In this document: one piece after another, positions 7,880 through 55,077 of the stretch | Position numbering within the stretch: the first letter of the stretch is position 1 | Layout: every line of letters starts with the position of its first letter | Origin: Clostridiales bacterium | GTDB lineage: Bacteria > Bacillota > Clostridia > Lachnospirales > Lachnospiraceae | Reading direction: 5' to 3' | Length of the DNA stretch: 64,000 bases | Assembly (NCBI GenBank): GCA_012522735.1 | Contig: JAAYJU010000106.1 | Span: 34,095-98,094, forward strand | Made by a program: the position numbers and the translations under genes | Notes under the pieces: model-generated | What the model was told of the DNA's origin: nothing | What the model saw: the letters and a program-made list of their open reading frames with translations, nothing else | Databases searched by the model: none

Positions 7880-8040
7880 CACGCATAAGCAGATTAGTCC
7901 ATGAAATTATCATGTTTTATGTGACATTCTTTATATGTCACAATAAAATATGGTAATTATCATGGATATGTGCATCGGTTCAGCAAGCTGAACCTTTTTG
8001 TGAACGAAAAAACCGTAGGTTTTTGAGTTCCTAATCTGCT
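7880..8040 (+). repeat. Modular hairpin repeat element, copy 1 (MITE/REP-like)
   Basis: Head CACGCATAAG, inverted pair AGCAGATTAG (7888-7897)/CTAATCTGCT (8031-8040), long internal stem centred on GTGACAT..ATGTCAC, core GTGCATCGGTTCAGCAAGCTGAACC (7970-7994). Related copies at 54915-55077 and 41637-41694. Confidence 0.85.
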
Positions 8041-8043
8041 AAT

Positions 8044-8982
8044 TTAATTCAATATCAACCTAGCACATCCATAAATCCCTGCATCATTACCAAGGGAGGC
8101 TATTAAAAACTCCTTATCCTTAAGTGCATTCATTACATTTGGTATGTAGTGCTTCTTAATATGTGATATCAATATATCACCAGCCTTAGAGACCCCGCCG
8201 CCTATGACAAATGCCTGAGGATCCATCACCTGTGCAACCCCTGCAAGGGCTATACCTAGATATCTACAGGCCTCATCGACTATCTCTAGGGCAAGCTCAT
8301 CACCCTGCTTAGCATAGTCAAATACCAGCTTAGCATTTATATCCTCTTTATCTGCCAGTAAAGAATCTTTAGAATTTTTTTCTAATGCTTGTCTTGCCAA
8401 TCTTGCAATACCCGTAGCAGAAGCATATTGCTCAAGACAGCCATACTTTCCACAGCCACAAGCCTCTTTTTCATCATAGTTTACAAGAATATGCCCGATT
8501 TCTCCACCGGCCCCGACACTTCCTGCAACAATTCTACCCTTATGAATAACACCTCCGCCAACTCCCGTTCCCAAGGTTACCAAAACCATATTATCAAAAC
8601 CCTTGCCCTTTCCCTTCCACTGTTCACCGAGGGCAGCAACATTGGCATCATTACCTGCTTTAACCTTAAGTCCGGTCATAGAAGACATCTCCTCTTCTAT
8701 ATTAAAGCCACCAAGACCAAGGTTAGCCATCTCTGATACATATCCCCTATCATTAACAGGACCCGGTAAACCTACTCCGACGCCAAGTATCTGTTCTCTA
8801 TCCAGACCCTTTTCTTTCCTGATTTTCTCTATGAAATCTGCAGCATCCTTTAAGACATCTTTACCGTTTTCGGTTCTTCTAGTGGCAAAGACACGTTTAT
8901 CAAGCATATTCCCTTCTCTATCAAATAAACCAATCTTTATGCCTGTACCACCGATGTCTACACCAAAACAATACTTATCCAT
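8044..8982 (-). CDS. glcK: ROK family glucokinase
   Basis: GVDIGGT, NDANVAALGE, TLGTGVGGG, GEIGHI..C.CG..GCLEQYASATG. ATG at 8982 chosen from GGAGG RBS (ORF track starts at GTG 8994). Confidence 0.92.
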   Translation of the reverse strand: MDKYCFGVDIGGTGIKIGLFDREGNMLDKRVFATRRTENGKDVLKDAADFIEKIRKEKGLDREQILGVGVGLPGPVNDRGYVSEMANLGLGGFNIEEEMSSMTGLKVKAGNDANVAALGEQWKGKGKGFDNMVLVTLGTGVGGGVIHKGRIVAGSVGAGGEIGHILVNYDEKEACGCGKYGCLEQYASATGIARLARQALEKNSKDSLLADKEDINAKLVFDYAKQGDELALEIVDEACRYLGIALAGVAQVMDPQAFVIGGGVSKAGDILISHIKKHYIPNVMNALKDKEFLIASLGNDAGIYGCARLILN

Positions 8983-8993
8983 AACTTCCTCCA

Positions 8994-9926
8994 CTACTCC
9001 TCTGTATTCCTTCGTATCTTGTTGGTAACTCTTTTATATAATTCCTGAGCAGCATTATATCCCATCTTCTTTTGCCTATGGTTTACAGCGGCAGATTCAC
9101 AGATAATTGCCAAATTTCTGCCGGGACGAATAGGTATTGAATGACATACTACTTGATTTCCCAGATATTCAATGTATTGTTCATCTAGACCGAATCGGTC
9201 ATAGTCCTTATCCCTACTCCATTCCTCAAGCTTGATTACCAGATCAATGGCCTGTGTATTCTTAACACTTTCAACACCGAACAGAGTCTTTACATCTATA
9301 ATTCCGATACCGCGAAGCTCGATAAAGTGTCTGGTGATATCAGGCGATGTTCCTATAAGCGTTTCATCACTAACCTTCTTGATTTCCACCACATCATCGG
9401 CTACAAGGCGGTGCCCTCTCTTAATCAGCTCAAGAGCAGCCTCACTTTTTCCTATTCCGCTTTCGCCGGTAATCAGTATTCCTTCACCATATACATCTAC
9501 TAATACACCATGAATTGATATTCTTGGTGCTAGCTCCACGTTCATCCACCTTATTACTTCAGCCATAAATGAGGATGTGGTCTTAGAGGATTTCAAAATC
9601 GGAACTTCTTTTTCGGTTGCAATACTAATAAGAGTATCACTAACCTCAAGATCCCTACAAAAGACAATACAGGGTACCTTATAATCCATTAGCTTACTCA
9701 TAATTTCAAGACGTCTCTCCATACCTAGATTTGACATATAGGCATGCTCCACATAACCTATAACCTGTACACGCTCTGAATCAAAGTGATCAAAAAAACC
9801 CGCCAGTTGTAGAGCAGGCCTGTTTACATCAGGCTGTGATATCTTAATTCTCTTAATATCAATGTCTGGCGTGCAATTTTCCAAATTCATCTTTTCTATT
9901 AGCTGTACCAAATCAACTGTATACAC
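8994..9926 (-). CDS. hprK: HPr(Ser) kinase/phosphatase
   Basis: NRPALQLAGF, HGVLVDVYGEGILITGESGIGKSEAALELIKRGHRLVADD, IPIRPGRN. Confidence 0.97.
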   Translation of the reverse strand: MYTVDLVQLIEKMNLENCTPDIDIKRIKISQPDVNRPALQLAGFFDHFDSERVQVIGYVEHAYMSNLGMERRLEIMSKLMDYKVPCIVFCRDLEVSDTLISIATEKEVPILKSSKTTSSFMAEVIRWMNVELAPRISIHGVLVDVYGEGILITGESGIGKSEAALELIKRGHRLVADDVVEIKKVSDETLIGTSPDITRHFIELRGIGIIDVKTLFGVESVKNTQAIDLVIKLEEWSRDKDYDRFGLDEQYIEYLGNQVVCHSIPIRPGRNLAIICESAAVNHRQKKMGYNAAQELYKRVTNKIRRNTEE

Positions 9927-10053
9927 CGCTTCATCCTCACTTTCATTTAAATCTAATACTTACTATCTAATAAAACATGAGATTCTATTTTCATTCTTTA
10001 ATCAAATTAATCTGCACACACATTCTAACACATCTAATACTTTAAAGTAAATC

Positions 10054-11925
10054 CTAATCAGCTTTAGGCTTGTGAAAGAAATTATATACCTCTGTCGCAG
10101 AGGCTTTATTCATAGAGGGAGCCTTAAGTATCTCATCGATATCCGCTTCCTTAATTGCCTCTAGGGATTGAAAATGCTTCATTAATGCCCTTCTTCTGGA
10201 TGGACCTATTCCTTTGATATCATCTAATATGGAACGCACCTGCTTTTTCTTACGTAGGCTTCTGTGATATTCTATGGCAAAGCGATGAGTCTCATCCTGA
10301 ATTCTTGTTATAAGCTTAAAGAGCTCACTGCTTTTGTCAATTGGAAGTTCTTTATTCCGGTAATAGAGACCTCTTGTACGGTGATTTTCATCCTTAACCA
10401 TGCCACATACTGCAATATCAAGCTTAAGCTCCTCCAATACCTCTAGGGCGACATTAACCTGTCCCTTTCCGCCATCCATAAATATTAGGTCGGGATATCT
10501 AGTAAAGCTCCCAAGAGCTTCATCAAGCTTCTTTTCTTTTAATTCCTCCAGCTCACGGATTCCATGGGTAAATCTTCGCATCAGCATCTCATGCATAGCC
10601 CCGTAATCATCGGGTCCAACAATAGTTCTTATCTTAAACTTTCTATAATCGGATTTCTTAGCCTTTCCCTGCTCAAATACCACCATGGACCCTACAGTTT
10701 CAAGGCCTGAAGTGTTTGATATATCAAAAGATTCTATCCTAGATATTAGCGGTAAATCCAGATAATCAGCTAACTCCTTAAGGGCTCCGGTAGTTCTTGC
10801 TTCTTCTCTTTTTAGCTTTTCGGCATCCTTATTAAGTATAAGGAGAGCATTTTTCTTAGCAAGCTCCACAAGCTTTTCTTTATTACCCTTTTTGGGTACA
10901 TGAAGGTAAACCTTCTGACCTCTTTTATTAGATAGCCACTGGCTAAGAATTTCCTCATCCTCAGGCTCTGCCTCCAGGAATATTTCCCTTGGTATATAAG
11001 GAGTTCCTGCATAGAACTGCTTAATAAAGCTGCCAATTACCTTGCTATCTGATTCATCCTCTACACCTGTCAGATAAAAATGATCCCTTCCAATAAGCTT
11101 TCCTCCTCTAATAAAGAAGGTCTGCACCACTGCTTCATCCTTATTTCTGGCAAAGGCTATGATATCTCTGTCAGCCTGGTCGGTATGAGTAATCTTCTGC
11201 TTATTCATAATCTGCTTAACGCTTCCAAGTAGGTCCCTATTAGTGGCCGCCTTCTCATACTCCATCTCATCTGAGGCTTGCTTCATTCTCTCTTCAAGCA
11301 TCTTTACAACAGGAGCATAATTTCCGCTTAGAAATTGGGTAGCATGGTCGATATTCTTGCCATAGTCCTCCTGTGAGATAAAGCCCTGACATGGAGCATC
11401 ACATTGTCCCATATAATAATAGAGGCAAGGTCTTTCCTTCCCGATATCCTTGGGAAGATTTCTGTTACAGGTTCTGATTTTATATAGCTTCCTTAGAAGA
11501 TCCAGAATGTCCTTAACAGCCGTTGTGCTGGTGTAGGGACCAAAGTATTTGGACTTATCTCTTTTCATCTCCCTAGAGAATAAGACTCTTGGATAGGCTT
11601 CATTTACAGTAACACGAATATAAGGATAGGTCTTATCATCCTTAAGCATGGTATTGTACTTAGGCCTGTGCTCCTTAATCAGGTTACACTCCAGCACCAA
11701 GGCCTCCACTTCCGAATCGGTAACTATATATTCAAAATGGTCTATACTCTCCACCATTTGCCTTATCTTCGTGGTGTGATTACGGCTGTTTTGAAAATAC
11801 TGCTTTACCCTGTTCTTAAGAATGACAGCCTTTCCCACATAGATAATGGTGTCTGATTTATCTCTCATAATATATACTCCCGGTTTATCCGGCAGCAACT
11901 TTAATTCTTCTTCTATATTAAACAT
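10054..11925 (-). CDS. uvrC: Excinuclease ABC subunit C
   Basis: [24 protein letters not shown] (GIY-YIG), [32 protein letters not shown]-terminal HhH. Confidence 0.97.
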
Positions 11926-11932
11926 AATCTAT

Positions 11933-11982
11933 CATGCCTTTCATCTTAGCATGCCTTTCATCTTGGCATGTCTTTATTTTAT
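11933..11982. repeat. 17-bp tandem repeat (2 near-perfect copies plus 1 degenerate) over the uvrC translation-initiation region
   Basis: CATGCCTTTCATCTTAG (11933-11949), CATGCCTTTCATCTTGG (11950-11966), CATGTCTTTATTTTAT (11967-11982). Confidence 0.8.
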
Positions 11983-12158
11983 ATAAGATGATAAGTAAAT
12001 GCAACATAATCTAATAAGTTAACATAAAATAAACTACCAAGGAGATATAGAATATATTATTCCTCATCCCCCTTAATCGCTTATAGTATCTTTTGTAGGC
12101 TCGTGGAAAATTTTTATATGATTTTACACATTTTAATTTATATATTAGCAGTATAAAA

Positions 12159-12192
12159 AGGTCTACCATACTTACAAAATTCTGGTAGACCT
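12159..12192 (-). terminator. Probable intrinsic terminator after ftsH
   Basis: 10-bp stem AGGTCTACCA/TGGTAGACCT followed on the minus strand by TTTT. Confidence 0.7.
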
Positions 12193-12217
12193 ATCTCATT
12201 ATTTCTCACTTATGCAA

Positions 12218-14233
12218 TTACACTTCAATATTTACACCAGGCGATTCTACATCTGTGCCCTGTACTACTACCTTCTCCTGGCCTTCATCAGCTATGTCCT
12301 GTACTACTTCCTTCTCCTGGCTTTCATCAAGCTCATCCTCAGTATGCGTCTCGGTTATGTCCTCACCCTTTATCTCTTTATATATTCCCATGAACTCTTC
12401 ACCGGTGATGGTTTCCTTGGTGATAAGAAATTCAGCTATTGCATCCAATACCTCTCGGTTTCCTGAAAGTAGTTCAAGTGCTCTATCATAGCATTCCTTC
12501 AAGATTCTCATTACTTCCTTATCTATCTCTCCTGCTGTTTCATTAGAGCAGTTTTGAACCGGTCTTCCGTCAAGATATTTGCTTTCTATAGATTCAAGTC
12601 CCATAAGTCCGAACTTTTCAGACATACCGTACTGGGTAACCATGGATCTTGCTAAGCTGGTAGCCTTTTCGATGTCATTGGAGGCTCCTGTGGTGATGGA
12701 TCCAAATACCAGCTCCTCAGCAGCCCTGCCACCATAGAGGGTGGTAATGCGGGTCATGATTTCATCCTTACTCATAAGGTATTTTTCTTCCTCAGGAACC
12801 TGCATAACATATCCTAAGGACCCCATTGTTCTTGGAACGATGGTTATCTTCTGTACGGGTTCAGCATGCTTTTCTAATGCTGTTACTAACGCATGACCTA
12901 CCTCATGATAAGCGACAATTCTTTTCTCTTCTTTATTTAAAATCCTATCTTTCTTTTCCTTACCAGCTATAACCACCTCAACGGATTCAAATAAATCCTC
13001 CTGTGTTACAACCGTACGTCCCTGCTTAACAGCAAGTATAGCTGCTTCATTAATCATATTTGCCAAATCCGAGCCAACAGCCCCGCTAGTAGCCCTTCCA
13101 ATAGCCTCTAAATCAACGGAATCATGCATAAGAACATTCTTGGCATGAACCCTTAATACATCTACCCTTCCCTTGAGGTCCGGCTTATCTACGATAATAC
13201 GGCGGTCAAATCTACCGGGACGAAGAAGGGCTTTATCTAGAACCTCAGGACGGTTGGTTGCACCAAGTACCACCAAGCCCTTTGAGGAGTCAAAGCCATC
13301 CATATTGGAAAGAAGCTGATTTAAGGTCTGCTCTCTTTCATCATTGCCGCCTCCATAGTGACTGTCTCTGCTTTTTCCTATAGCATCTATCTCGTCAATA
13401 AATATAATACATGGAGCAGTCTGCTGTGCCTGCTTAAATAAATCTCTTACTCTTGATGCACCTACACCTACGAACATTTCTACAAAGTCAGATCCGGTTA
13501 ATGAAAAGAAGGGTACCTTTGCTTCACCGGCGATAGCCTTCGCAAGTAGTGTCTTACCAGTTCCAGGAGGACCTACAAGTAATGCACCCTTGGGAAGCTT
13601 GGCACCAATACGGGTATATTTTGCGGGATTATGAAGGAAATCTACAATCTCTGTAAGAGATTCCTTTGCTTCCTCCTGACCGGCTACATCCTTAAATGTG
13701 ACTCCGGTTGATTTTTCAACATAAACCTTGGCATTGCTTTTACCGACGCCCATAACACCGCCGCTATTCTTAGATATAGCTTTAAATAAGAACCACATGA
13801 CTACATATATCAATATGAAAGGAAGAAGCATCGATAATATACTGTCTAGGATGGAGCTTCGATTATCCACAACCTTCCTGCTGTAATTTAGTCCATTTCT
13901 GTCATGAGCCTCTTGCAGCTGTTTGCTAAGCTCCTCATCATATAGGTTACCGGTATAATAGGATATGTCATAGTTGTAAGGCTGAACTATTGGGATAAAG
14001 TTGATTCTGTCACCGTCAATAATAACCTCCTTAAGCTTATCCTCATCCAACATAGTCATAAACTCATCGTAGCTTTGTTCAATATTAGTACTTTCTTTTA
14101 ATTGATTCGTTATCGCAGAAAACATATACCAGATAAATATTGCCGAAAGCAAGGTTATGATAATCGCAGTTCTATTCGGCATGTTATTCTTATTCTGTTT
14201 GTCATTCTTATTATCCATTAAGTCCTCCATCAT
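12218..14233 (-). CDS. ftsH: ATP-dependent zinc metalloprotease FtsH
   Basis: Two TM segments, [36 protein letters not shown]. Confidence 0.96.
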
Positions 14234-14446
14234 TTATTTCATACAAAATCTATATAGTATTAAGAATTATATTTTCCTATTAATTATCAATGCAATATAT
14301 TTCATTATACTGATAGTCCAATTATAAATCAATAAAATAGTTCTTAAAATTCTGTGTCTAATCTGTGATAATCCATATACCAGATAATTTCTATCAATCT
14401 AAATATTATATATGTATCATATAGAATATAGCAACCCAAAAAGAAA

Positions 14447-14468
14447 AAGGGAAACATGTTGTTCCCTT
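14447..14468 (-). terminator. Probable terminator after lspA
   Basis: AAGGGAA-acatgttg-TTCCCTT stem with a T-rich run (complement of AAAAAGAAAA) on the minus strand. Confidence 0.55.
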
Positions 14469-14486
14469 AAGTGAAAATGCATCTCC

Positions 14487-14975
14487 TTATTCTTCCTTTA
14501 GAATCTGTCCACTTTCATTTATTATTTTCCTATGAAACAGATTTGACAATAGCATCAAAAATGAACCTACAATTATAAATATATCCGCAAGATTAAACAC
14601 TATATGCTTTATAGATTTTATATTAAAACTAAAATAATCTACAACCTTTCCTCTCTCAAAACGATCCTTCAGATTACTTGCTCCGCCTCCTATACATAAG
14701 GCTAAGCCTAGTTTCTGCAGTCTCATTCTCTTAGAAGGAAGGATTAATATAAATGCAAGGGTAACGATTGCAAATACTATAGCTGATACCTTCTTGACAA
14801 TTTCAGTTTTGTCGTCCAAGACATTGAGGCAAAACCCACTATTGTACTCTCTTTTTACGGTGATTTTACCCTTTAGAATATCCTTCTTTTCTCCAATACG
14901 GATCTTTTGCTCGATATAATTCTTCATATTACTGTCTAACAGAAATACTGCTAGCGCTATTAGGATATACACCAT
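14487..14975 (-). CDS. lspA: Lipoprotein signal peptidase II
   Basis: Hydrophobic 162 aa; N.G motif (EYNSG), GGGASNLKDR..GKVVDY, FNLADIFI. Confidence 0.8.
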   Translation of the reverse strand: MVYILIALAVFLLDSNMKNYIEQKIRIGEKKDILKGKITVKREYNSGFCLNVLDDKTEIVKKVSAIVFAIVTLAFILILPSKRMRLQKLGLALCIGGGASNLKDRFERGKVVDYFSFNIKSIKHIVFNLADIFIIVGSFLMLLSNLFHRKIINESGQILKEE

Positions 14976-15011
14976 ATAGATTCCTCCTTTAAACTGAAAG
15001 ACCTTTAGATC

Positions 15012-15920
15012 TTAGTCGGACTTAGACCAGGACACATGATTTTTTAATAGTTCTCGTCCTTTTTTATTTCTAATATTCTGATATGAGGGATAATGGACGT
15101 AAATCGCCTCATCCTTTTGAAGCTTAATAATCCTATTCATTAGCTCCTTAAGCTTAGGGTCATAGACAAGCTTTACTCTACCAGTTTCAAATATATCCTT
15201 GAGCCCTGTAAAGGCACTTGCCAGAAAAATAACATTCAAATCCTCTTCGTAGATAATAATCTCTGAATGTTTTGAAAGAGATAGTAACTCATTTATATGA
15301 TACCCAAAACCTAATCCATATATAATATATCTCTTAACCTCTTTATTATACCAATATCTTGCAAGCATGAAAGCCTCTGTTGGTATTCTACCATTAGTAT
15401 GAAAATAGAAGGAATCCTTTCCGTTTTTTGCGGCAAGGGTCATTAAGCCGGAGGAAGAAAACTCTACTCTATAGCCTTCCATAAGAAAGGTCTGAGGGTC
15501 GATAGATTGGTCTAGTAATCCTTCCAGCCCTAAACTAGAGCTCTTAAGCACCTTAAGATTCTCATTATAGCTTTTCTCGTCAAATGTAACCTCCTCCTTG
15601 CTAATAATCAGCTCCTGGACGCCTATAATAAAGCTAACCAGCTGAAGTTCAAGTAAATCCGCAAGGAGGATATAATCTCCCATTTTGTATGCTTCCAAAA
15701 CTCCGCTTAACATTTCCATTACAGAATCTGTGGAAACTAGATTAAAATACTCTTTGTTATCAATAATCGCTTCTATGGAATACCTAATAAGATCCATCGA
15801 ATCTGCAATAATACCAAGAGCAAGATCATGTCGCTGCTCACGAAAATAATAAATAGCCTTATCTGCCTGCCCTAGCAAATCAATATTATTATAAAATATA
15901 GTCTTTATCTTATCTGTCAT
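15012..15920 (-). CDS. Maf-related protein: small helical domain fused to a Maf N-terminal domain, no DUF115 catalytic region
   Basis: N-terminal ~105 aa has LEAYKMGDYILLADLLE, like MKALEIGDTILFSDIFE in 36011-36328. C-terminal half has YIIYGLGFGYH..IIIYE, like VSMYGLGNGIF..LIIYE in the Maf at 34135-35973. Confidence 0.55.
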   Translation of the reverse strand: MTDKIKTIFYNNIDLLGQADKAIYYFREQRHDLALGIIADSMDLIRYSIEAIIDNKEYFNLVSTDSVMEMLSGVLEAYKMGDYILLADLLELQLVSFIIGVQELIISKEEVTFDEKSYNENLKVLKSSSLGLEGLLDQSIDPQTFLMEGYRVEFSSSGLMTLAAKNGKDSFYFHTNGRIPTEAFMLARYWYNKEVKRYIIYGLGFGYHINELLSLSKHSEIIIYEEDLNVIFLASAFTGLKDIFETGRVKLVYDPKLKELMNRIIKLQKDEAIYVHYPSYQNIRNKKGRELLKNHVSWSKSD

Positions 15921-15945
15921 CGATGGTCACCTCATTTATCCCATA

Positions 15946-17868: not shown

Positions 17869-18006
17869 CTCTTAAACCTCCAATTCACAAACCTGTTATG
17901 TACCACAAATCAGTTTATAAATGATACAATGATTAACTGTTGCAAATTATTCAAAATTTCACTATTATCATATTTATCGGTCTTTATATGATTATTCTGA
18001 ACCACT

Positions 18007-18867
18007 CTAGCTAATATCATCGAATTCTAGATATGAACAAGGTATATGTGTCTTTCGCTCTTCAATAGGCGGTAATTTCATATAATTACGGTAAATTGAT
18101 CTTAAATACCAGTCATAATTACTGAAGCCAAAGAACAAATGGCCCTCAAACTCATATTCAGATAAATTTTTAAATATTTTTTTTGGAAACCCATAGGGAT
18201 AATCCTTAGGATGAGGAGAACACATGTGAGATATAAGCTCATGTTTCCTTTTATTATTATAATTTGCAATTAATAATTGTGTTTTCATTACGAGGTTTCT
18301 AGGTATCTTTGATAATATAGAATACCACATTCTCATTAATCGATTTGGGTGTACTCTTTTACCAGCTTCTGACCATAGTGTTTTTTGGATGCAATAACTA
18401 GTAAATAAATGTATCCTTCTTAATAATATATTGTCAGGGACCCCATCCATAATAAAGATATCCAAAAACACACCATCTTGAGCTGGTATGTGCTCATATC
18501 CTGCACGAACATATCTTGTGCCTTTTAATAATAATCTAGAATACCCCCATCTGTAATAAGGATCTGTCGTGTAATCCTGAAGGAAAAACCTTTTATGATC
18601 TAGTCCCCCCTTGCTCTTACAAACCATATAAAATCGCTCGTAATCTCTACGTAGTATTACAACATCTGCATCTGTATCCCATGGAATAAAGCCCTTGTGC
18701 CTGACAGCACCCAGTAATGTACCGCCGTCTATTGCATAAGGTATATTATATGCTCTGCAAATACGATCAAATTCCACAAGACAATCTAATATATTGCTTT
18801 GTAATCCTTTGACCTGTTCGTCAGTTAGCTCTATTATACTTATATTACTACGCATTTGATACTTCAT
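18007..18867 (-). CDS. LicD family phosphotransferase (paralogue 1)
   Basis: GGTLLGAVRHKGFIPWDTDAD signature, C-terminal YLRSIYRNYMKLPP.E.R. Confidence 0.9.
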   Translation of the reverse strand: MKYQMRSNISIIELTDEQVKGLQSNILDCLVEFDRICRAYNIPYAIDGGTLLGAVRHKGFIPWDTDADVVILRRDYERFYMVCKSKGGLDHKRFFLQDYTTDPYYRWGYSRLLLKGTRYVRAGYEHIPAQDGVFLDIFIMDGVPDNILLRRIHLFTSYCIQKTLWSEAGKRVHPNRLMRMWYSILSKIPRNLVMKTQLLIANYNNKRKHELISHMCSPHPKDYPYGFPKKIFKNLSEYEFEGHLFFGFSNYDWYLRSIYRNYMKLPPIEERKTHIPCSYLEFDDIS

Positions 18868-18869
18868 TC

Positions 18870-19937: not shown

Positions 19938-19938
19938 T

Positions 19939-20439: not shown

Positions 20440-20456
20440 AGTTATCCCCAACCCTC

Positions 20457-40807: not shown

Positions 40808-40835
40808 ATATCGGCATGATAAACAAAAAACTTTA
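40808..40835 (-). promoter_or_regulatory. Sigma-28 promoter of flaG-fliD-fliS
   Basis: TAAA-N16-GCCGATAT on the minus strand. Confidence 0.8.
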
Positions 40836-40900
40836 TATCTTACTTTATAATTTCTGATTAGTGAAACTCTTATGATAAAGTCACGAGAATGCATGGCAAC

Positions 40901-41589: not shown

Positions 41590-41636
41590 AGGTTTCCCCT
41601 TTCGTATGAATATAATTATTTATAATATAAACTACT

Positions 41637-41694
41637 CAGATTAGTGGCTGCACACCGAAAGGTTCAGCTTGCTGAACCGATGCACTTATGCGTG
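41637..41694 (-). repeat. Modular hairpin repeat element, copy 3 (short, internally deleted)
   Basis: Minus strand reads CACGCATAAG, GTGCATCGGTTCAGCAAGCTGAACC (identical to 7970-7994), a short spacer, then CTAATCTG. It begins 1 nt after the flgL stop. Confidence 0.8.
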
Positions 41695-41695
41695 T

Positions 41696-43192: not shown

Positions 43193-43207
43193 TTGGCACC
43201 TCCAACA

Positions 43208-45064: not shown

Positions 45065-45072
45065 GCTACCTC

Positions 45073-46809: not shown

Positions 46810-46830
46810 ACCACCTTCACTTTGATTTAC

Positions 46831-47346
46831 TTACTGTTTTGCATCGAACATCCCTGTTCCTGAAGATTTTTCATTATCTTGCGATGCATTTTTAGTGTAA
46901 GTGTTGTTCCCCGGCGACATCCTTGTACTTTGAAGAAAATTCATATTGAATTCTATCATCTCTAGGGATTGTTGAATTAGAACCTTGTTTCTATTATTAA
47001 TTTCAACTAATATATTAACGGTTTCCTTAAGCTTGTCGTGAAGCTCAGATAAAATCCTTTTTTCCTTTTGTTGATGATCCAATAGACCAACTAGGGTAGA
47101 AAGATTTAAGTTCTTGTCTTCTTTTCCAAGAACAGTTCCGATATCCTCCATAACCCTAGCTCTCTTGTTCTCCAGAGCCGTGACCTTGTCTATTGCATCT
47201 TGTTCCTTCGCAGTGATTTCCTGCAAAGCTACTGTGTCATTCATAACGATTATCTGTGTCTTTTCTCTGACAACAGGAATAAGCTGATTATATACATCCT
47301 GTTCCTTACTTAATATATCAATTAACTCATCAATTAAGCTTGCCAC
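46831..47346 (-). CDS. flgN: Flagellar export chaperone FlgN
   Basis: Helical 171 aa, L...N.RN..LIQQSLE.I, C-terminal FDAKQ; directly after flgM. Confidence 0.8.
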   Translation of the reverse strand: MASLIDELIDILSKEQDVYNQLIPVVREKTQIIVMNDTVALQEITAKEQDAIDKVTALENKRARVMEDIGTVLGKEDKNLNLSTLVGLLDHQQKEKRILSELHDKLKETVNILVEINNRNKVLIQQSLEMIEFNMNFLQSTRMSPGNNTYTKNASQDNEKSSGTGMFDAKQ

Positions 47347-47375
47347 AATTTACCTCGCTTCCGATATAAAAGATC

Positions 47376-47654
47376 TTATACCAGTTCATCAAAATAACGG
47401 TTAACCACTTTATCGGCTACATCTGTCATATTAATATTGTAAGTCCCAGATTCAATCTGCTTCTTGATTTGGTTTACTTTATCCTCTCTTACATCAGGAG
47501 TCTGTGTAACAATTTGCTTTGCCACCCTATAATCCTGTCCCTTTTGGGATATCTCTAGCTTATCACTAAAGCTTCCACCGCTTGGCTTAGTTGCTTTCTT
47601 AACATTATTAGCGTTATAAACCTGACTTACCTTGTTATATGCATCTATACGCAT
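47376..47654 (-). CDS. flgM: Anti-sigma-28 factor FlgM
   Basis: DKLEIS, DVREDKV..IK.QIESGTY.I..VADK. Confidence 0.92.
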   Translation of the reverse strand: MRIDAYNKVSQVYNANNVKKATKPSGGSFSDKLEISQKGQDYRVAKQIVTQTPDVREDKVNQIKKQIESGTYNINMTDVADKVVNRYFDELV

Positions 47655-47709
47655 AATTTCACCACCTAACTAAAACTGATTGTTGATTTGTTCTATTACC
47701 CTATATTAT

Positions 47710-47736
47710 TTATCGGCTTTTTACTAATAAACATTA
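47710..47736 (-). promoter_or_regulatory. Probable sigma-28 promoter of flgM
   Basis: TAAT-N15-GCCGATAA on the minus strand. Confidence 0.65.
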
Positions 47737-47766
47737 TAGGTAAAATGCTTTAATTATGTTAATCTA

Positions 47767-49053
47767 TTAGCTCCAAATAAACCAAATCAATATATATCCA
47801 GTTATAACTGCTGATAGGGTAAATGGAACACTTACCTTCATAAATGTTCCCGCACTTACCTCATATCCTTCTTTTCGCAAGATACCTAGTCCTGTAATAT
47901 TGGCAGATGCACCTATAGGAGTTATATTACCACCTAGGGTAGCACCAATTAGTAATCCAAAATAAAGTAGGTTTGGCTGTATCCCCATAATATTTGCTAT
48001 CTCTCCCACAACCGGAAGCATTGTTGCCACATATGGGATATTATCAATAAAGGCAGAGAACAATACCGAAGCCCATACTATCAAGGAGTATATTAAAAAT
48101 ACATTATCACCGCTTGCTTTAACAAAGATCTGACTTATGTCCTTTACAAGTCCTACTTCGGTAATTCCACCTATCACAACAAACAATCCCGCTAAAAGAA
48201 GGATTGTATCAAAATCTATGGAATTAATACTATCTTTAATGGTCTCTGAATTTCTTGTCTTAATTAGCTTGCGAATAAGTCCTATTAGGAATAAGCCCAT
48301 ACATATAATACCATTCATCATGCCTTCGATAGCATCTGGCTTGTACTCACTCGGGACAAATGAGTTAAGTATCAATAGTACCACTATGCCTACCAATAGT
48401 ACTGTAGGAAAATAATCCTCAACCTTAGTTCGCTCTGAAGTCTCTATATATTGTCTATCATTTCTAAAAAGGACTAAAAGGACTATAGTAGAAACAACTG
48501 CACCGGCTTCAACTACCCAGAATATTCCCGGCTTACCATCAAGATAAAAGAAATCTATAAAGCTTAGGTTGGCATGTCCGCCAAGTAATATAGATGTGGT
48601 ATCACCAACCAAGGTGGCAGCCCCCTGAAGATTAGAGGAGATGGCTATAGAGATTACACTTAGCACCGGTGATATTCTAAGCTTCTTGGCAATATTTACA
48701 GCGACGGGAGCAACCATCAATACAGTTGCTACATTATCTACAAAGGCAGATATTATACCCGCAAAGAGAGCCAATGATATAATCGCCCATTTTATATTTG
48801 GCACCCTATTAATAATATGGTCGGCTAATAAAGAAGGCATCTTAGATTCTATAAAGAAACCGACTACTCCCATTGTGCCGGCAATCATTAAAATAACATT
48901 CCAGTCTATTGCCGTAAGAACTTGATTTAAAGGTAATATACCAAGGATAACAAAAATTGCCGCTGAGACTAGGGCAATGTATGCCCTAATTTTAGGAAAA
49001 GATAATAATAAAATATAAGTCAATGCAAATAATATAATAGCTGTGGTCTTCAT
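47767..49053 (-). CDS. ArsB/NhaD/SLC13 family ion transporter
   Basis: About 12 hydrophobic segments; SAFVDNVATV, GDTTS, SAFIDNIP, GGNITPIGASAN. Confidence 0.8.
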   Translation of the reverse strand: MKTTAIILFALTYILLLSFPKIRAYIALVSAAIFVILGILPLNQVLTAIDWNVILMIAGTMGVVGFFIESKMPSLLADHIINRVPNIKWAIISLALFAGIISAFVDNVATVLMVAPVAVNIAKKLRISPVLSVISIAISSNLQGAATLVGDTTSILLGGHANLSFIDFFYLDGKPGIFWVVEAGAVVSTIVLLVLFRNDRQYIETSERTKVEDYFPTVLLVGIVVLLILNSFVPSEYKPDAIEGMMNGIICMGLFLIGLIRKLIKTRNSETIKDSINSIDFDTILLLAGLFVVIGGITEVGLVKDISQIFVKASGDNVFLIYSLIVWASVLFSAFIDNIPYVATMLPVVGEIANIMGIQPNLLYFGLLIGATLGGNITPIGASANITGLGILRKEGYEVSAGTFMKVSVPFTLSAVITGYILIWFIWS

Positions 49054-49087
49054 AGTCCTCCCGATTTATGTGTTTATATATAAACAC

Positions 49088-49113
49088 AAATTCCCCCCCT
49101 AGAGGGGGAATTT
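49088..49113 (-). terminator. Hairpin after the S41 protease gene
   Basis: AAATTCCCCC-cctaga-GGGGGAATTT. Confidence 0.65.
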
Positions 49114-49128
49114 ATACTTATAATTTAT

Positions 49129-50370
49129 TTACTTCATTTGCTCTTTTAGAATCTCAATTGCTTTTTGAAGCTGATTATCCTCATCTTTTGGAATAGTTAC
49201 CAGCTGCTTTAACTCTTCGTCTAGCTCGATTTCCACGTCAGGCACAATGCCCTCGCCATGTATATTTCGTCCATTTGGCGTAAAATATTTAGATATAGTA
49301 AGCTTGATGGCGGTTCCGTCTGTTAAGGGTATGACCCTTTGTACTATCCCTTTACCAAAGCTTGTAGTCCCTATCACTGTTGCCTTATCATAATCCTGCA
49401 AAGTCCCTGCAAATATCTCTGAAGCGCTGGCGCTATTACCATTAATCATTACCACCATGGGTTTATTATATCGATCAGAATTATCGGTTTTTTCTTCTTC
49501 TCGATTACCATATTTATCTTCAGTGTATACAACTAATTTCCCTTTAGGAAGCAAACGGTCCAGAATATCAACCACCGAGTTTAAAAGTCCCCCGGGGTTA
49601 TTTCTGACATCAATGACTAGTCCTTTCATTCCCTTCTTTTCTAATGCAGAAATCGCGCTAGAAAATTGAGAAATAGTAATATCATCAAATTCAACAATTT
49701 GAATATAGCCTATATCGTTCTTTAGCATCTCATATTCAATGGTCGGGATATTAATCTTTTTCCTTACTATAGTAAAGTCCATGGGATCTGTGACACCATC
49801 TCTATAGATAGAGATATTTACCTTGGTGCCTTCCTTGCCCTTGATTTTACCAACAACCTCTGTAAGGTCTTCGCCTGTGACCTCTACACCTTCCACTTTA
49901 AATAAAATATCATCAGGAAGCAAGCCAGCATTATAGGCAGGTCCATCCTTATATGGTCTTACAACGGTAATTACTCCCGTCTTAACATCCTGACTTACCA
50001 CGGCTCCAATACCATGATATACACCAGAGGAGCTTTCAATTAAATTCGCATACTCCTGTTTGGTATAGTATGTTGAATAGGGATCATCCAGACTATTAAC
50101 AAATCCTTTATATATCCCTGTGGCATAAGCCTCTGAATCTACATCTTCTAAATAATACGTATCTATTATCATCTTCAATACAGATAATTTTTCGACAATA
50201 TCCTCATAATTATCTTCTTCTGTATTATTGGCAGCGGACACATCCTCTATAGGTGTGGCATCAACCTTTTCTGGTTCATATACCAGGTAAAATACGCCAA
50301 AGCCTATTAAGGACAATAATATAGCCCCAAAAATCCCGGACAGAAATCCGGTTAAAAAGTTTTTCCTCAT
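49129..50370 (-). CDS. ctpA: C-terminal processing protease (S41 family) with PDZ domain
   Basis: LDDPYSTY, GIGAV, DVRNNPGGLL, NGNSASASEIFAG, GTTSFGKGIVQ. ATG at 50370 chosen from GGAGG RBS. Confidence 0.88.
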   Translation of the reverse strand: MRKNFLTGFLSGIFGAILLSLIGFGVFYLVYEPEKVDATPIEDVSAANNTEEDNYEDIVEKLSVLKMIIDTYYLEDVDSEAYATGIYKGFVNSLDDPYSTYYTKQEYANLIESSSGVYHGIGAVVSQDVKTGVITVVRPYKDGPAYNAGLLPDDILFKVEGVEVTGEDLTEVVGKIKGKEGTKVNISIYRDGVTDPMDFTIVRKKINIPTIEYEMLKNDIGYIQIVEFDDITISQFSSAISALEKKGMKGLVIDVRNNPGGLLNSVVDILDRLLPKGKLVVYTEDKYGNREEEKTDNSDRYNKPMVVMINGNSASASEIFAGTLQDYDKATVIGTTSFGKGIVQRVIPLTDGTAIKLTISKYFTPNGRNIHGEGIVPDVEIELDEELKQLVTIPKDEDNQLQKAIEILKEQMK

Positions 50371-50396
50371 ACCAAGCCTCCTAAAAAAGTAAATAA

Positions 50397-51485
50397 TCAA
50401 TAATCTAACTGTTCCATGTATTTCATATATTTAACAACCATTAAAGCTATTTTAAATGTAATTGCATCTTCAAATACACGAAGATCAAGATTGGTATTCT
50501 TTTGTAATTTATCTAGGCGATATACAAGGGTGTTCCTATGTATATATAATTGCCTTGAGGTCTCGGATACATTCAGGTTGTTCTCAAAGAATTTATTTAT
50601 TGTAGCTAGTGTCTCATCATCGAAGTCATCAGGTGATTTGCCTTCAAATATCTCTTTTATAAACATTTTACACAGAGGCATGGGAAGCTGATAAATCAAT
50701 CTTCCAATTCCTAGGTTGTTGTATGCCACGACATTTCTGCCGCTGTAGAATATCTTGCCCACGTCAAGAGCCATCTTTGCTTCCTTAAAGGATCTGGATA
50801 CATCCTTAATTTCAGATACTATTGTACCATAAGCCACATGAACCTTTGTCATAGCCTCGGTATTAAGCATGTCAAGGATAATTTTAGCTGTTTTATTCAG
50901 ATCCTCATAGGTCTCATTATGCTTTACTTCTTTTACAAGTATAATATTCTTTTCATCTACAGCTGTAATAAAATCCTTTGTCTTTCCAGAGAATAGGCTA
51001 CGAACTGTCTCAAGAGCATTAGCATCCTTTTCATTCTTAGTCTCAATAATATATACAACTCTTTTAGCTTCAGTATCAATATGAAGCTTCTTTGCACGGT
51101 TATAGATATCAACCAGCAGTAAATTATCAAGAAGAAGATTCTTGATAAAATTATCCTTATCATAACGCTCTTTATAGGCTATAAGCAGATTCTGTATTTG
51201 AAAAGCAGCAATCTTTCCAATCATAAATACATCCTCGCTGTCACCCTTTGCAACAATTACATATTCCAATTGATGCTCATCAAAAACCTTAAAAAACTGA
51301 TATCCTTGAATAGCCTGACTATCAGCAGGTGAAGCTACAAATGATAAAACTATATTCTCATATTGATCTGTATTCTCAGCTGTTGATGCCAAAGCTTTAC
51401 CTTCTGTATCCATAACCGATATGTCAATACGTGTAATACCCTTTAAGCCATCAATTGTATTTTGAAGAATTTGATTTGAAATCAT
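50397..51485 (-). CDS. CdaR/PucR family transcriptional regulator
   Basis: C-terminal FFENNLNVSETSRQLYIHRNTLVYRLDK helix-turn-helix. Confidence 0.85.
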   Translation of the reverse strand: MISNQILQNTIDGLKGITRIDISVMDTEGKALASTAENTDQYENIVLSFVASPADSQAIQGYQFFKVFDEHQLEYVIVAKGDSEDVFMIGKIAAFQIQNLLIAYKERYDKDNFIKNLLLDNLLLVDIYNRAKKLHIDTEAKRVVYIIETKNEKDANALETVRSLFSGKTKDFITAVDEKNIILVKEVKHNETYEDLNKTAKIILDMLNTEAMTKVHVAYGTIVSEIKDVSRSFKEAKMALDVGKIFYSGRNVVAYNNLGIGRLIYQLPMPLCKMFIKEIFEGKSPDDFDDETLATINKFFENNLNVSETSRQLYIHRNTLVYRLDKLQKNTNLDLRVFEDAITFKIALMVVKYMKYMEQLDY

Positions 51486-51719
51486 ATATACACTCCTTTA
51501 AATATTATATTTGAATTTTTACTTAAAATTCATAGATACTAATCCCATTTTAGCACTATAATAGTAATAAGTAAACTATTTTTATTAATATTGCATAATA
51601 CTTTTAGTACAATTCTATGAATTTACTACTATTATAAATTAGTTGCCTCATTAAACTATATCCATGATATGTCTATATAGTCCATTTATAGTATACAGTT
51701 TTAGGATTTCAAGCAAAAA

Positions 51720-51743
51720 AAGAGAACACCGAAGTGTTCCCTT
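51720..51743 (-). terminator. Probable terminator after the sugar ABC ATPase gene
   Basis: AAGAGAACAC-cgaa-GTGTTCCCTT, with a T run on the minus strand from the A7 tract. Confidence 0.65.
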
Positions 51744-51757
51744 CAATCTTTATATTA

Positions 51758-52873
51758 TTAGTTTGTTATAACCTCTTCTGTATCCTTATCAAATACATGT
51801 AGCCTATTCATATCAAAAGCAACCTTTAATACATCATCAGGTCTAGCTGTTGTACGAGGATTTACACGAGCGGTAAATTCTAAGGTATCATCAACCGAGA
51901 AGTATAAGAATACTTCAGCACCCAGAAGCTCGTAAACTCTTACAGTTGCTTCAAGTACAGCTTCAGGATAATTGTTGATATACATCTCTTCATCATGAAT
52001 ATTCTCAGGACGAATACCGATAACAACGCTCTTATCAACATATCCGCCATCAACAAGCTTCTTAGCCTTATTCTCAGGTAGCTTTAAAGCCTTGTTATGG
52101 AATTCAACAAATACATCTTCACCTCTCTTAACAACAATAGCATCCATAAAGTTCATCTGAGGTGATCCCATGAAACCAGCAACGAATAAGTTCTGAGGCT
52201 TATCGTAAAGGTTCTGAGGAGAATCAACCTGCATAATTAATCCATCCTTCATAACAACAATTCTTGTACCAAGTGTCATAGCCTCGGTCTGGTCATGTGT
52301 TACATAGATAAATGTTGTCTGTAATTTCTGATGTAGCTTGGAAATCTCGATACGCATCTGTACTCTCAATTTCGCATCAAGGTTTGATAAAGGCTCATCC
52401 ATAAGGAATACCTTAGGATTACGAACGATTGCACGACCCATAGCTACACGCTGTCTCTGACCACCGGACAGAGCCTTAGGCTTACGATCTAATAAATGCT
52501 CAATATCAAGAATCTTAGCTGCTTCATGAACAACCTTATCAATCTGATCCTTGGGAACTTTTCTTAATTTCAGACCAAATGCCATATTATCATATACTGA
52601 CATATGAGGATATAGCGCATAGTTCTGGAAAACCATCGCAATATCTCTATCCTTAGGTTCAACATCATTTACTAACTTATCATCAATATAAAGTTCACCC
52701 TGTGTAATCTCTTCAAGGCCTGCTATCATACGCAGTGTTGTAGATTTACCACAGCCTGATGGCCCAACGAAAATAACAAACTCTCTATCGGCTATCTCAA
52801 GACTAAAGTCTTTAACTGCTACTACGCCGTTAGGGTATTGCTTCGTAATATTCTTTAATGATACACTTGCCAT
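51758..52873 (-). CDS. msmX: Multiple-sugar ABC transporter ATP-binding protein (MsmX/UgpC type)
   Basis: [47 protein letters not shown]; stand-alone gene. Confidence 0.88.
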
Positions 52874-53055
52874 TTTCTATCCTCCTATACATTTCGTGTA
52901 TGTTCTTGTACTTCTTTATATCAGTATGATACACCATTTGTTTTACATAAACCATATCCCATTTTAACAAAATCGGTTTTGCCCTTTTGTATAATTTGTA
53001 TATTTAAAGATAAATTAAGTGTTTTTACCGATAATCTAAATATTTTTTGTTTTAT

Positions 53056-53940
53056 TTACTGTCTATATTCTATAAAGCCTTCACCCATTACTTCACGTAC
53101 ATCATTGACAATTACGAAAGAATTTGGGTCTATTTTCTTAGCAATTTCAGTAATTTTAACAATTTCATTCTTGGAAACTACACAAAAAAGCATCTTCCTT
53201 TCCTTATGGGAGTACATACCTGTGGAGCTTAAACCGGTTACCCCACGGTCAAGGGTGGTCATTATTTCTTTTGCAATCTTGTCATATTCATCAGAAATTA
53301 TATATGCCATTTTTGCAAATTTCAAACCTTCCAATATACCATCTGACACTTTAGTGGTTATGATTACGGCTATAATAGCATACAATGCATTTCCTAGTCC
53401 AAACACCAAAGCTCCTAAAACAATTATTGCTCCATCAATAAAAGTCAGAATAAAGGGAACCGAAATATGTCGTTTGTATCTATGGATTAGCGTTGCCAGC
53501 AAATCTGTTCCACCCGTGGAAGCATATACTGAAAACACCATTCCCATACCGACACCGGTTATAGCTCCTCCCACTACAGATGATAATAACATATCATTAA
53601 AGTTAAAATCATAGATTGGAATAATCATCAAGGATATAACCAAGCTTACTGTGCCAAAAAAAACATTAAGCATGGTCTTTAGTCCCAGAATCTTAATGGC
53701 TACTATGAATAAAGGTATATTAACTATAACTGTAAAAAGCCATATAGGAAGACCGCCCTCCCATATATACTTAGTAATCTCCTTGACTATTATAGCAAGT
53801 CCGGATATTCCTCCTGTAACTAAGCCCAAAGGCTCATATATTAAATTAATAGCTAAGGCCATCAAAAATGAACCTACAGCAATTGTCACATACTTTTTAA
53901 TTATTTTACTTGTTTTACTTAATACTTTTCTTCTTGACAT
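53056..53940 (-). CDS. YitT family membrane protein
   Basis: GLVTGGISGLAI, STGGTDLLA, RGVT....GMYS, IDPNSFVIV..EV.GEGF. Confidence 0.88.
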   Translation of the reverse strand: MSRRKVLSKTSKIIKKYVTIAVGSFLMALAINLIYEPLGLVTGGISGLAIIVKEITKYIWEGGLPIWLFTVIVNIPLFIVAIKILGLKTMLNVFFGTVSLVISLMIIPIYDFNFNDMLLSSVVGGAITGVGMGMVFSVYASTGGTDLLATLIHRYKRHISVPFILTFIDGAIIVLGALVFGLGNALYAIIAVIITTKVSDGILEGLKFAKMAYIISDEYDKIAKEIMTTLDRGVTGLSSTGMYSHKERKMLFCVVSKNEIVKITEIAKKIDPNSFVIVNDVREVMGEGFIEYRQ

Positions 53941-54015
53941 TATTCAACCCTTTTTATGCCTTTCACATTATTAGCTTGCGCTCATACTTGTCTAGCTATA
54001 CTCTATGTACTGGGT

Positions 54016-54858
54016 TTATTCGCCCAAGTAATCTTTAAGCTGCTTGGCAGCTTCCAGTTCATTAATAGTATATGCACTATTACTATCAGCTCCGGCGATA
54101 ACCTCAAATACGATATTTTTTCCCGGAGTGTTTAGATAACTTTCCATATAATTAAGCTTATCCTCAAAAGAAAGATTTGATGTAATTTCATCATATAACT
54201 CTTCTATATAATTACGTAATTCAGTCTCTGTACTTATTGTATGTAAATGCTCCAAAAAACTATCAGAAAAAACTTCTCTAGGAAATATATTCTCTGAATT
54301 CTGCAGATTATTTGCTTTTCTCTTTATAATCTCAGTATCAAATACAGTATTGTATATGCTCTGTGGTACTACTGTAAAATAGCTAATTTGAATATCTAGT
54401 AGCTCCTCAATCATTAAAACTCCATATTCATACACATTTTCCTTGGGCAGATAACCGGTTATGGCAGAAAGCTTTAAAAAGCTAGGAATCGATGGCTTAA
54501 TAAGTACAAGCTCTCTATGCAATGAATCTGATAAGGTTAGTTGAGTTTTAATGGGAATTGTAATATAGTAAAGCATTACATTTTCACAATTAAATATCTC
54601 TAAAATCAACTTTGTAATGTCTCCGCTTTCTTCATCAACGCAGTAGATGAGATGCTTTGATACATCATCAATTCTTGCCTCGGTAATAAGAGCCTGCTTT
54701 TTAACCGGCGGAATGGCTTCTATCACATTTGAATCCTCCACGTCATAAAAATACATCACTAATTTATAGCTAGCAACAATAATAATAGTAACAAGCATTA
54801 AAAAAAGAAGGGATTTTAAAAATCCTGTAGCAAATATTTTACCTGCACTTTTTCTCAT
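54016..54858 (-). CDS. Hypothetical membrane-anchored protein
   Basis: N-terminal TM helix and an acidic extracytoplasmic domain; family not confidently recognised. Confidence 0.5.
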   Translation of the reverse strand: MRKSAGKIFATGFLKSLLFLMLVTIIIVASYKLVMYFYDVEDSNVIEAIPPVKKQALITEARIDDVSKHLIYCVDEESGDITKLILEIFNCENVMLYYITIPIKTQLTLSDSLHRELVLIKPSIPSFLKLSAITGYLPKENVYEYGVLMIEELLDIQISYFTVVPQSIYNTVFDTEIIKRKANNLQNSENIFPREVFSDSFLEHLHTISTETELRNYIEELYDEITSNLSFEDKLNYMESYLNTPGKNIVFEVIAGADSNSAYTINELEAAKQLKDYLGE

Positions 54859-54914
54859 ATATTCACCCCTCATTCTAGACTATTTTACCATACCACAATT
54901 CCCTAATCAACATC

Positions 54915-55077
54915 CGCGAATAAGCAGATTAGTCCAAGATAATCAGAAACTTTTTTTGTGACATGTTGTATATGTCATAATAAAATGATATATTTATCAT
55001 GGATAAAGTGTATCGGTTCAGCAAGCTGAACCTTTAAGCGAACGAAAAAGTCGAAGACTTTCGTGTTCCTAATCTGC
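54915..55077 (+). repeat. Modular hairpin repeat element, copy 2
   Basis: TAAGCAGATTAGTCCA, GTGACAT..ATGTCAT, ATCATGGA, GTGTATCGGTTCAGCAAGCTGAACC (55008-55032), GAACGAAAA..GTTCCTAATCTGC; colinear with copy 1. Confidence 0.85.

Follow-up and report, generated by a model that had tools for sequence, protein, structure and literature searches.

Is the hairpin element that recurs in a 64-kb stretch of a Clostridiales genome a piece of mobile DNA, a structured RNA, or both? The stretch analyzed here (hereinafter the window; positions 34095-98094 of contig C29, from an assembly of 2.82 Mb in 259 contigs with 37% GC) carries three copies of it, designated copy 1 (7880..8043, plus strand), copy 2 (54915..55077, plus strand) and copy 3 (41636..41694, minus strand). 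Interspersed stem-loop repeats have been described in a few model bacteria, and their function is disputed. A preliminary description of the window had proposed that the element is either mobile, though non-autonomous, or a structured RNA, and this either/or is supported, the two being not mutually exclusive: our data fit a repeat that spread at the DNA level and whose copies are constrained as sense-strand RNA. The best explanation, to which we assign a probability of about 0.6, is a mosaic repeat resembling MITEs (transposable elements of the miniature inverted-repeat type), BOX elements and bacterial interspersed mosaic elements (BIMEs), which is co-transcribed and folds as RNA either 5'-terminally or between cistrons, the RNA role being the part that we infer.

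The three copies were found where they had been reported, and copies 1 and 2 do share their modules; in the alignment these two are collinear, while copy 3, real as it is, aligns solely as the reverse complement and is only a remnant (head, core hairpin and 3' arm). The expectation that many more copies exist genome-wide proved correct. With copy 1 as a query, blastn detected 61 places in the same genome, and the merged blastn matches amounted to 43 loci. A covariance model (CM) trained on 16 standard copies yielded 72 matches with both strands counted, corresponding to ~45-50 forward copies when the truncated and mini ones are counted in, which is far above chance. The 11-mer arms are present 107 and 101 times, compared with ~23 expected by chance.

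The element is 60-210 nt long (~140 nt in a standard copy), with a GC content of 30-47% and no internal open reading frame (ORF); being small (<300 bp), non-coding, multi-copy, AT-rich and intergenic, it agrees with MITEs in size and content. In the standard order, a head CACG(N) is followed by the 5' arm ATAAGCAGATTAG of the closing stem P1, the hairpin P2, a conserved junction UAAGUGCAACGUG, the hairpin P3 and the 3' arm of P1 (CUAAUCUGCUUAU). P1 (AAGCAGATTAG/CTAATCTGCTT) comprises 9-19 bp, and the terminal inverted repeats (TIRs) ATAAGCAGATTAG / CTAATCTGCTTAT, as expected of a MITE, reach ~19 bp in some copies. The head had been described as lying outside the inverted pair, which is wrong: ATAAGCAGATTAG pairs with CTAATCTGCTTAT, the inverted pair is longer than claimed, and half of the described head (ATAAG) consequently belongs to P1. 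The difference from a MITE bounded by TIRs is likewise smaller than described. P2 is a hairpin of ~30 bp, the apex of which (UUUUAUGUGACA...UGUCACAAUAAAA) is conserved within the source genome and replaced by other apices in other genomes. P3 is a short hairpin, e.g., GAGCGAGAAAGUC-GAA-GACUUUCGAGCUC, with loops chiefly of the C-GAA-G or C-GTA-G kind.

The modules are combined in a BOX-like manner, as the arms of P1 do not vary, P2 may be there or be missing, and a small, terminator-like core hairpin of 24 nt (AUCGGUUCAGCAAGCUGAACCUUU) is inserted into the junction 0, 1 or 2 times. Mini forms consisting of P1 only and P2-less forms occur, as do tandem and back-to-back copies. At the C245 site the P2-less form differs from the full one by a deletion between the ATAAG direct repeats of the head and the junction, and copy 3 of the window displays exactly the same deletion junction. 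The 24-nt module is also found alone, including positions after stop codons in sister species, and behaves as an independent small repeat. At two loci (L079 and L081, i.e., G001:C119 and G024:C77) the core hairpin ATCAGTTCAGCAAGCTGAACTTTT stands alone directly after a stop codon, and the orthologous site G000:C223:3853-3994 holds a full element without the core module. At G000:C122:15264-15361 the tail of a copy (GGAGCCACTAATCTGCTTATCATAATGC) is repeated in tandem four to five times with a 28-nt period, forming a minisatellite built from the 3' arm of the element.

The suggestion that the fold is under selection is supported by massive compensatory change, including that between copies at orthologous sites. 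In the 16-copy alignment 29 of the 47 base pairs exhibited compensatory changes. For 71 distinct copies, drawn from many genomes, the share of paired cells was 93.9%, compared with 73.6% after shuffling and 34-39% with slid partners; double-sided changes were observed in 41/47 pairs (654 cells), and none of five pairing measures was reached in any of 500 shuffles. The longest hairpin is not exempt, with double changes in 27/29 pairs of P2, and P3 is 97.6% paired with 8/8 pairs double-changed. In nine pairs of copies with homologous flanks 138 base pairs changed, of which 90 remained paired (67 by double compensation and 23 as a retained wobble) and 48 were broken in one partner. The primary sequence is much less constrained: the median best-match identity among copies is 79%, identity above 90% was found in just one tandem duplication (besides one site fetched twice under two locus ids), and in six orthologous pairs the element identity was 57-85%, in most cases no higher than the identity of the coding flanks (e.g., 69% vs 85-89%). 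Hence, the sequence drifts and the pairing stays. The main rival explanation, a purely selfish MITE without any RNA role, accounts for this by hairpins that are kept for transposition or by quasipalindrome correction during replication, and the faster divergence of elements relative to their coding flanks is in its favor; that copies so old (median best match 79%) are nevertheless 94% paired argues against it.

The strand on which the pairing is maintained can be read from the mismatches. On the modelled strand G-U/U-G cells outnumber A-C/C-A cells (94 vs 29), and when copies were sorted by local GC skew, the G-U:A-C ratio was 58:15 for the leading-strand copies and 25:11 for the lagging-strand ones. 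As the excess persists on lagging-strand copies, it follows the own strand of the element rather than replication composition, which a selfish MITE explains less well.

The position of the copies relative to promoters is the second line of evidence. Seventy upstream flanks from many genomes are devoid of conservation beyond ~20 nt upstream, save TGnTATAAT at a fixed distance. With -10 boxes called at a match of at least 5 of 6 positions including A2 and T6, the hexamer ends 7-10 nt 5' of AAGCAG in 44/69 copies, most often at 9 nt (26 copies), most other offsets giving 1-3 matches. The extension TGn accompanies 30 of these 44 anchored boxes, and a -35 box at a spacing of 16-18 nt is likewise present in 30/44 anchored copies, compared with a control rate of 12%. 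If +1 is placed ~7 nt past the hexamer, transcripts would begin with the G of CACG or with the base after it, 0-2 nt before P1. The element-free alleles of sister species share these idiosyncratic -10 boxes (TGATATACT at C256, CGTATAAT at C24 and CATATTGA at C175); the boxes are host-derived and ancestral, and the promoters are unrelated to each other. In 17/72 copies the upstream ORF runs into the head, which supplies its TAA or TAG. A family-wide internal promoter in P2 was considered and rejected, since the T at -7 of the candidate -10 box is present in only 7 of the 16 aligned copies as judged by eye; an operator of the CRP/Rex type for the TGTGA..TCACA of P2 was also dismissed, its spacing being N13 instead of N6 and its positions covarying as pairs.

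Orientation gives the same picture. With genes predicted by a crude ORF caller, 38/43 copies (88%) were found in the orientation of the downstream gene, often ~10-60 nt from its start. Between co-directional genes ~25 copies are sense and 5 antisense, and 12-14 copies reside between divergent genes, where the element is nearly always nearer the gene it faces; none of ~43 copies is located between convergent genes. For comparison, 81% of the genome's intergenic regions separate co-directional genes, 10% convergent and 9% divergent ones. Judged by GC skew, 28 copies lie on the leading and 15 on the lagging strand, and all of the ten copies with a lagging-strand downstream gene follow the gene, none going with replication against it. 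An account of the orientation by replication strand, as for a single-stranded DNA transposon (a PATE derived from IS200/IS605), was rejected on these grounds: the orientation tracks the gene. The selfish MITE would explain the bias as a target preference for TGnTATAAT combined with the loss of harmful insertions. Pneumococcal MITE-like repeats, in contrast, are enriched between convergent genes (PMC3049150), where the present family has no copy, a difference that counts against the selfish reading. As most copies stand directly after a promoter and before a gene, the element is probably the folded start of many mRNAs.

Comparison with relatives, where presence, absence and module content vary among sister species, demonstrated that the sites are gained and lost, as is expected of MITEs with their filled and empty sites and in favor of the selfish reading. 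The site of copy 1 is merely 20-40 nt long and element-free in five sister species. When filled and empty sites were aligned, an imperfect direct repeat of ~20 nt was seen on either side of copy 1 (CTGCTAGCTTATGTCATTAT at 7859..7878 on the left and CTGCTAATTTAATTCAATAT at 8036-8055 on the right, plus strand), of which the sister species G024 has a single copy, CTGCTAACTCATGTCAAGAT, itself resembling TGnTATAAT; the repeat is like a target site duplication (TSD), yet it overlaps the 3' arm and is thus ambiguous. The site of copy 2 is occupied in G001, in G011 and, by two tandem copies, in G052; in G024, G015, G022 and G051 it is empty, the empty alleles having a normal promoter, TTTATA-N17-TGTGATATACT, in place of the element. 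Ten further sites probed with a query of concatenated flanks were mostly empty, P2-less or mini in sister species. A distant metagenome-assembled genome (MAG; locus L140) was rejected as an occupied copy 1 site, the element lying in the neighboring spacer.

Perfect flanking direct repeats were found at 5/71 copies, in five genomes, with lengths of 11, 11, 11, 12 and 18 nt and ~0.2 expected. All of them are the extended -10 box (ATGnTATAATn) in an invariant geometry, ending 7-9 nt before AAGCAG and starting 0-7 nt after CTAATCTGC. In the remaining 66 copies the flank similarity is at background, with no decay series, so a regular target duplication is not established; a universal decayed TSD was rejected, as the distribution is bimodal (five perfect repeats and the rest background). 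The five perfect repeats and the imperfect one at copy 1, together with the gains and losses and the tandem and back-to-back copies, speak for a selfish element with a preference for -10 boxes, which explains the flanking repeats and the dynamics and is the main rival, and the 66 copies without residual flank similarity speak against it; on balance we rate it as a possible but rather unlikely explanation. In Mobilisporobacter senegalensis (RJVG01000001, L171:3284-3627) a pair of copies shares 97.7% identity at a distance of 213 nt. Both have an extended -10 box of their own and are followed by the same hairpin, and the pair represents a local duplication in tandem, of recent date, that took in the promoter along with the element.

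The observation that the window holds no transposase can be extended: none adjoins any of the copies inspected, nor did a longer element bounded by these ends turn up, which speaks against a selfish element. Of the features of a MITE, a cognate insertion sequence with the same ends was thus not found, and a regular TSD is not established. In the source genome and in ~0.5 Mb of loci from other carriers, 5' and 3' arms 0.5-5 kb apart formed chance pairs only. Small contigs and a 361-aa ORF between two outward copies, considered as transposase candidates, were found to code for ordinary housekeeping proteins. A plasmid or phage origin was rejected, with no match in plasmid or phage collections.

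The only candidate of another kind is a single RAYT-like Y1 (HUH) transposase gene in the genome (G000:C28:5637-6296; 54.5 bits to PF01797), and the element might accordingly be of the REP/REPIN or IS200/IS605 type, moved as single-stranded DNA by such an enzyme. The C-GAA-G and C-GTA-G loops, which are classic stable DNA mini-hairpins and predominate in P3, and the lack of an established regular TSD are in line with this proposal, and genomes of the genus with a Y1 gene have more copies on average (mean 11.9 vs 2.9 without). The correlation is loose: one genome with 10 copies (98% complete) has no Y1 gene, and one Y1-bearing genome has no copies. Moreover, the flanks of the Y1 gene are without the element, differently from REP/REPIN-RAYT systems, and the orientation of copies tracks transcription and not replication; we consider mobilization by Y1 very improbable. 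A single hairpin, built on three repeats of GTAATGGTGCC, is located ~290 nt upstream of this gene.

The third line of evidence for the RNA concerns the head. The head tetramer (CACG/CGCG) is reverse-complementary to, and covaries with, the junction tetramer (CGUG/CGCG), the head/junction combinations being CACG/CGTG (29 copies), CGCG/CGCG (8), CATG/CATG (3), CGTG/CGCG (2), and CACA/TGTG, CGTG/CACG and CATG/CGTG (one each). With the head located by a rule independent of the junction sequence, 3.49 of 4 positions pair, compared with 3.11±0.04 after shuffling (maximum 3.28 in 2000 shuffles), and the tetramers are fully paired in 45/67 copies, while shuffles gave 30.6 on average and 38 at most. 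Such covariation, meaningless for a double-stranded TIR and thus unfavorable to the selfish MITE, suggests at the sequence level an H-type pseudoknot topology in the order 5' tail-P1a-P2-tail partner-P3-P1b.

The same order, 5' tail-P1a-hairpin-tail partner-hairpin-P1b, raises the question whether the lineage has multiplied a functional RNA of a dedicated class, which could be a leader that binds a protein, a ribozyme that cleaves itself or a fold that blocks exonucleases. The strand order is alike in HDV-like ribozymes and in the exonuclease-resistant RNAs (xrRNAs) of flaviviruses; for a fold of either kind, the strand order and the 4-bp covariation are compatible, the helix lengths differ, and there is no Rfam match. 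The conserved unpaired junction UAAGUGCAACGUG, the covarying candidate pseudoknot, the anchoring of P1 at the predicted +1 and the sense orientation would all suit a functional class. On the other hand, the modules come and go freely, P2-less and mini versions included, P2 by far exceeds every catalytic core helix in length and is also more variable, the range is very narrow, and the downstream genes are unrelated housekeeping genes, without the coherent gene set and wide vertical conservation of riboswitch-type RNAs. No Rfam family was matched: Rfam 15 gave no match in the window at the gathering score (riboswitches, T-box and known ribozymes included), and on eight loci at E up to 5 merely chance miRNA/snoRNA hairpin matches. 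Such a class is therefore, in our opinion, quite unlikely. Equally speculative is a stronger form of the co-transcription model, in which the element is a portable 5'-end module landing or retained at transcription start sites, 0-3 nt after the extended -10 box, whose three-way junction and tail-junction pseudoknot would sequester or process the mRNA 5' end by an exonuclease-resistant or self-cleaving fold.

Taken together, the position at the predicted transcript start, the replication-independent sense orientation, the sense-strand wobble and the tail-junction covariation favor the reading of the element as a co-transcribed RNA. Copies have arisen, vanished and been remodelled at the DNA level, and the survivors are nearly all in the sense orientation inside transcription units, most of them directly behind a sigma-70-type promoter, so that P1 would start at ~+1/+2 of the mRNA, and others directly behind the stop codon of an upstream gene within an operon. 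According to this model, the fold (P1, P2, junction, P3 and a probable 4-bp pseudoknot) is maintained on the sense strand, and the co-transcribed element would most likely alter the fate of the mRNA, perhaps by shielding its 5' end from 5'-end-dependent decay or with the long P2 duplex as a processing site. Anatomy, copy number, distribution, covariation, orientation and promoter spacing have been shown; a transcription start at P1, any influence on RNA stability and the way in which the element spreads are what we infer from the DNA.

Several points weigh against this model. Copy 1, the best-folded in the window, is antisense to both of its neighbors, the ROK-family kinase gene and murB (minus strand). 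Compensatory change in DNA palindromes can arise by template switching without selection, and the G-U excess could come in part from transcription-associated C-to-T change on the non-template strand. The 4-bp head-junction pairing is possibly alternative to P1 and not simultaneous with it, since a P1 of 9-13 bp with a linker of 1-5 nt is sterically tight. The lack of a mobilizing enzyme mentioned above also counts here, as does the absence of any sign of recent transposition, the copies being ~70-89% identical to each other.

The repeat family is apparently new and restricted to a few related gut and digester Clostridia. CM matches, 1-50 per genome, were found in 18 of the 25 genus members sampled, and the 16 genomes taken from the order's other families gave none; in other genera of the family the element is present in 2/150, one of them with 16 copies. 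An exact-word scan revealed carriers in two cultured strains, Mobilisporobacter senegalensis DSM 26537 and Anaerotaenia torta DSM 100431, and in MAGs of Herbinix and Anaerocolumna as well as many digester MAGs labelled 'Clostridiales/Bacillota'; the lone matches in unrelated phyla are at the chance level for a 16-mer. Four contigs of 'Anaerolineaceae bacterium MAG4' (SHOH01; L094, L096, L102 and L122) carry the element as well. Their flanks, when translated, reach 94% identity to the source genome, and this MAG appears to be mislabelled or its bin to be mixed.

In the window, copy 1 is a full element with one extra core hairpin module (106.9 bits with the CM), and its RNA folds with a minimum free energy of -67.1 kcal/mol (z -10.7). 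All its parts are on the plus strand: the head tetramer CACG (7880..7883), the candidate 5' strand of the pseudoknot, whose candidate partner is the junction tetramer TGTG at 7999-8002; the P1 5' arm ATAAGCAGATTAG (7885..7897), which pairs with 8031-8043; P2 (7898..7966), a long and almost perfect hairpin; the optional core hairpin GGTTCAGCAAGCTGAACC followed by T5 (7977..7999), terminator-like by terminator scan; P3, GAAC..AAAAACC-GTA-GGTTTTT..GTTC (8002..8030); and the P1 3' arm CTAATCTGCTAAT (8031..8043). The copy lies between the stop of the ROK-family kinase gene and the promoter/start region of murB. Copies 1 and 3 had been noted to abut the stop codons of a glucokinase gene and flgL; the abutting is correct, and the labels have to be amended to a ROK-family kinase and a flagellin-family, FlgL-like protein, the latter gene being followed by fliW.

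Copy 2, also a full element with one core hairpin (73.9 bits; -51.3 kcal/mol, z -5.8), occupies the 5' region of a short-chain dehydrogenase gene starting at 55103, and the middle of its P2 is in part decayed. Its second hairpin, AAAGTC-GAA-GACTTT, differs in letters from the AAAAACC-GTA-GGTTTTT of copy 1, the pairing being kept. P2 of both copies encloses a promoter-like GTGACA-N17-TAAAAT on the plus strand (7921-7949 in copy 1 and 54958..54986 in copy 2), each scoring 10/12. Neither the source genome nor G052 has the dehydrogenase gene's ancestral promoter, and the promoter-like site of copy 2, judging by its sequence, possibly substitutes for it. The divergent gene at 54016-54873 (no Pfam match) retains a promoter TTGATT-N17-TAAAAT (54874-54914), the -35 box of which directly touches the head of copy 2. 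Copy 3 is a deletion derivative that keeps the junction and the core hairpin between the head CACGCATAAG and the 3' arm CACTAATCTGAG, its reverse complement reading CACGCATAAG-TGCATCGGTTCAGCAAGCTGAACCTTTCGGTGTGCAGCCACTAATCTGAG; its fold is unexceptional (z -1.4). By Pfam it lies between the stop of the FlgL-like gene and fliW, in the same orientation as both. A GC-richer cluster of nested hairpins at 4568-4760, after a gene ending near 4436-4560, matches neither the element nor its CM and thus looks separate.

The signature of the family is unusually clean: a fixed -10 spacing, 88% sense orientation, no convergent sites, compensatory change at ~79% identity and tail-junction covariation. With cultured carriers at hand (M. 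senegalensis DSM 26537 and A. torta DSM 100431), the choice between a parasite and a module of mRNA fate is directly testable. If the RNA role is true, the family would represent a compact natural 5'-untranslated region part for anaerobic Firmicutes, and, should the element indeed be a portable 5'-end module, unrelated genes would share one post-transcriptional handle.

Among known systems, the ompA and aprE leaders are single-locus 5'-terminal stabilizer stem-loops, with the stem 0-2 nt from the mRNA 5' end. Unlike these unique leaders, the element, with its putative stabilizing effect, is multi-copy and insertion-polymorphic. Correia elements (CREE/NEMIS) of Neisseria are accompanied by a TA duplication and bounded by TIRs of 26 bp; the element differs from them in a closing stem of 9-19 bp and no established regular duplication. 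It is, like the Correia elements and ERIC of enterobacteria, a stem-loop, MITE-like repeat, and those are transcribed and can create promoters and alter mRNA stability via RNase III/RNase E cleavage in an orientation-dependent manner (summarized in PMC3049150); unlike them, it resides in a Firmicute, and its promoter is host-derived and located upstream of the element. With REP/BIME and REPIN-RAYT systems, the REPIN populations of which are described as long-lived inside genomes (PMC8049555), it shares this longevity, the mosaic of short palindromic units and the occurrence within operons, and it differs in having no flanking RAYT, far longer units and a mostly promoter-proximal position rather than one at operon 3' ends.

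Another close likeness is to BOX of Streptococcus pneumoniae (boxA-boxB(n)-boxC), which is also modular, with pairing end modules and a variable number of internal ones, measures ~100-200 nt, is present in tens to hundreds of copies, has a tight predicted fold if transcribed, varies between strains by gain and loss of modules and has no proven mobilizing enzyme (PMC3049150). However, BOX is over-represented between convergent genes (16/86), where pneumococcal RUP and SPRITE are enriched too (PMC3049150), in contrast to none of ~43 copies of the present element, and BOX, the host of which is unrelated, is not reported at a fixed distance from a -10 box or with pseudoknot-type covariation. Finally, putative mobile promoters are near-identical 5' regions before unrelated genes (PMC3575422); unlike these, the repeat described here starts just after the -10 box, behind promoters that are unrelated to each other and ancestral.

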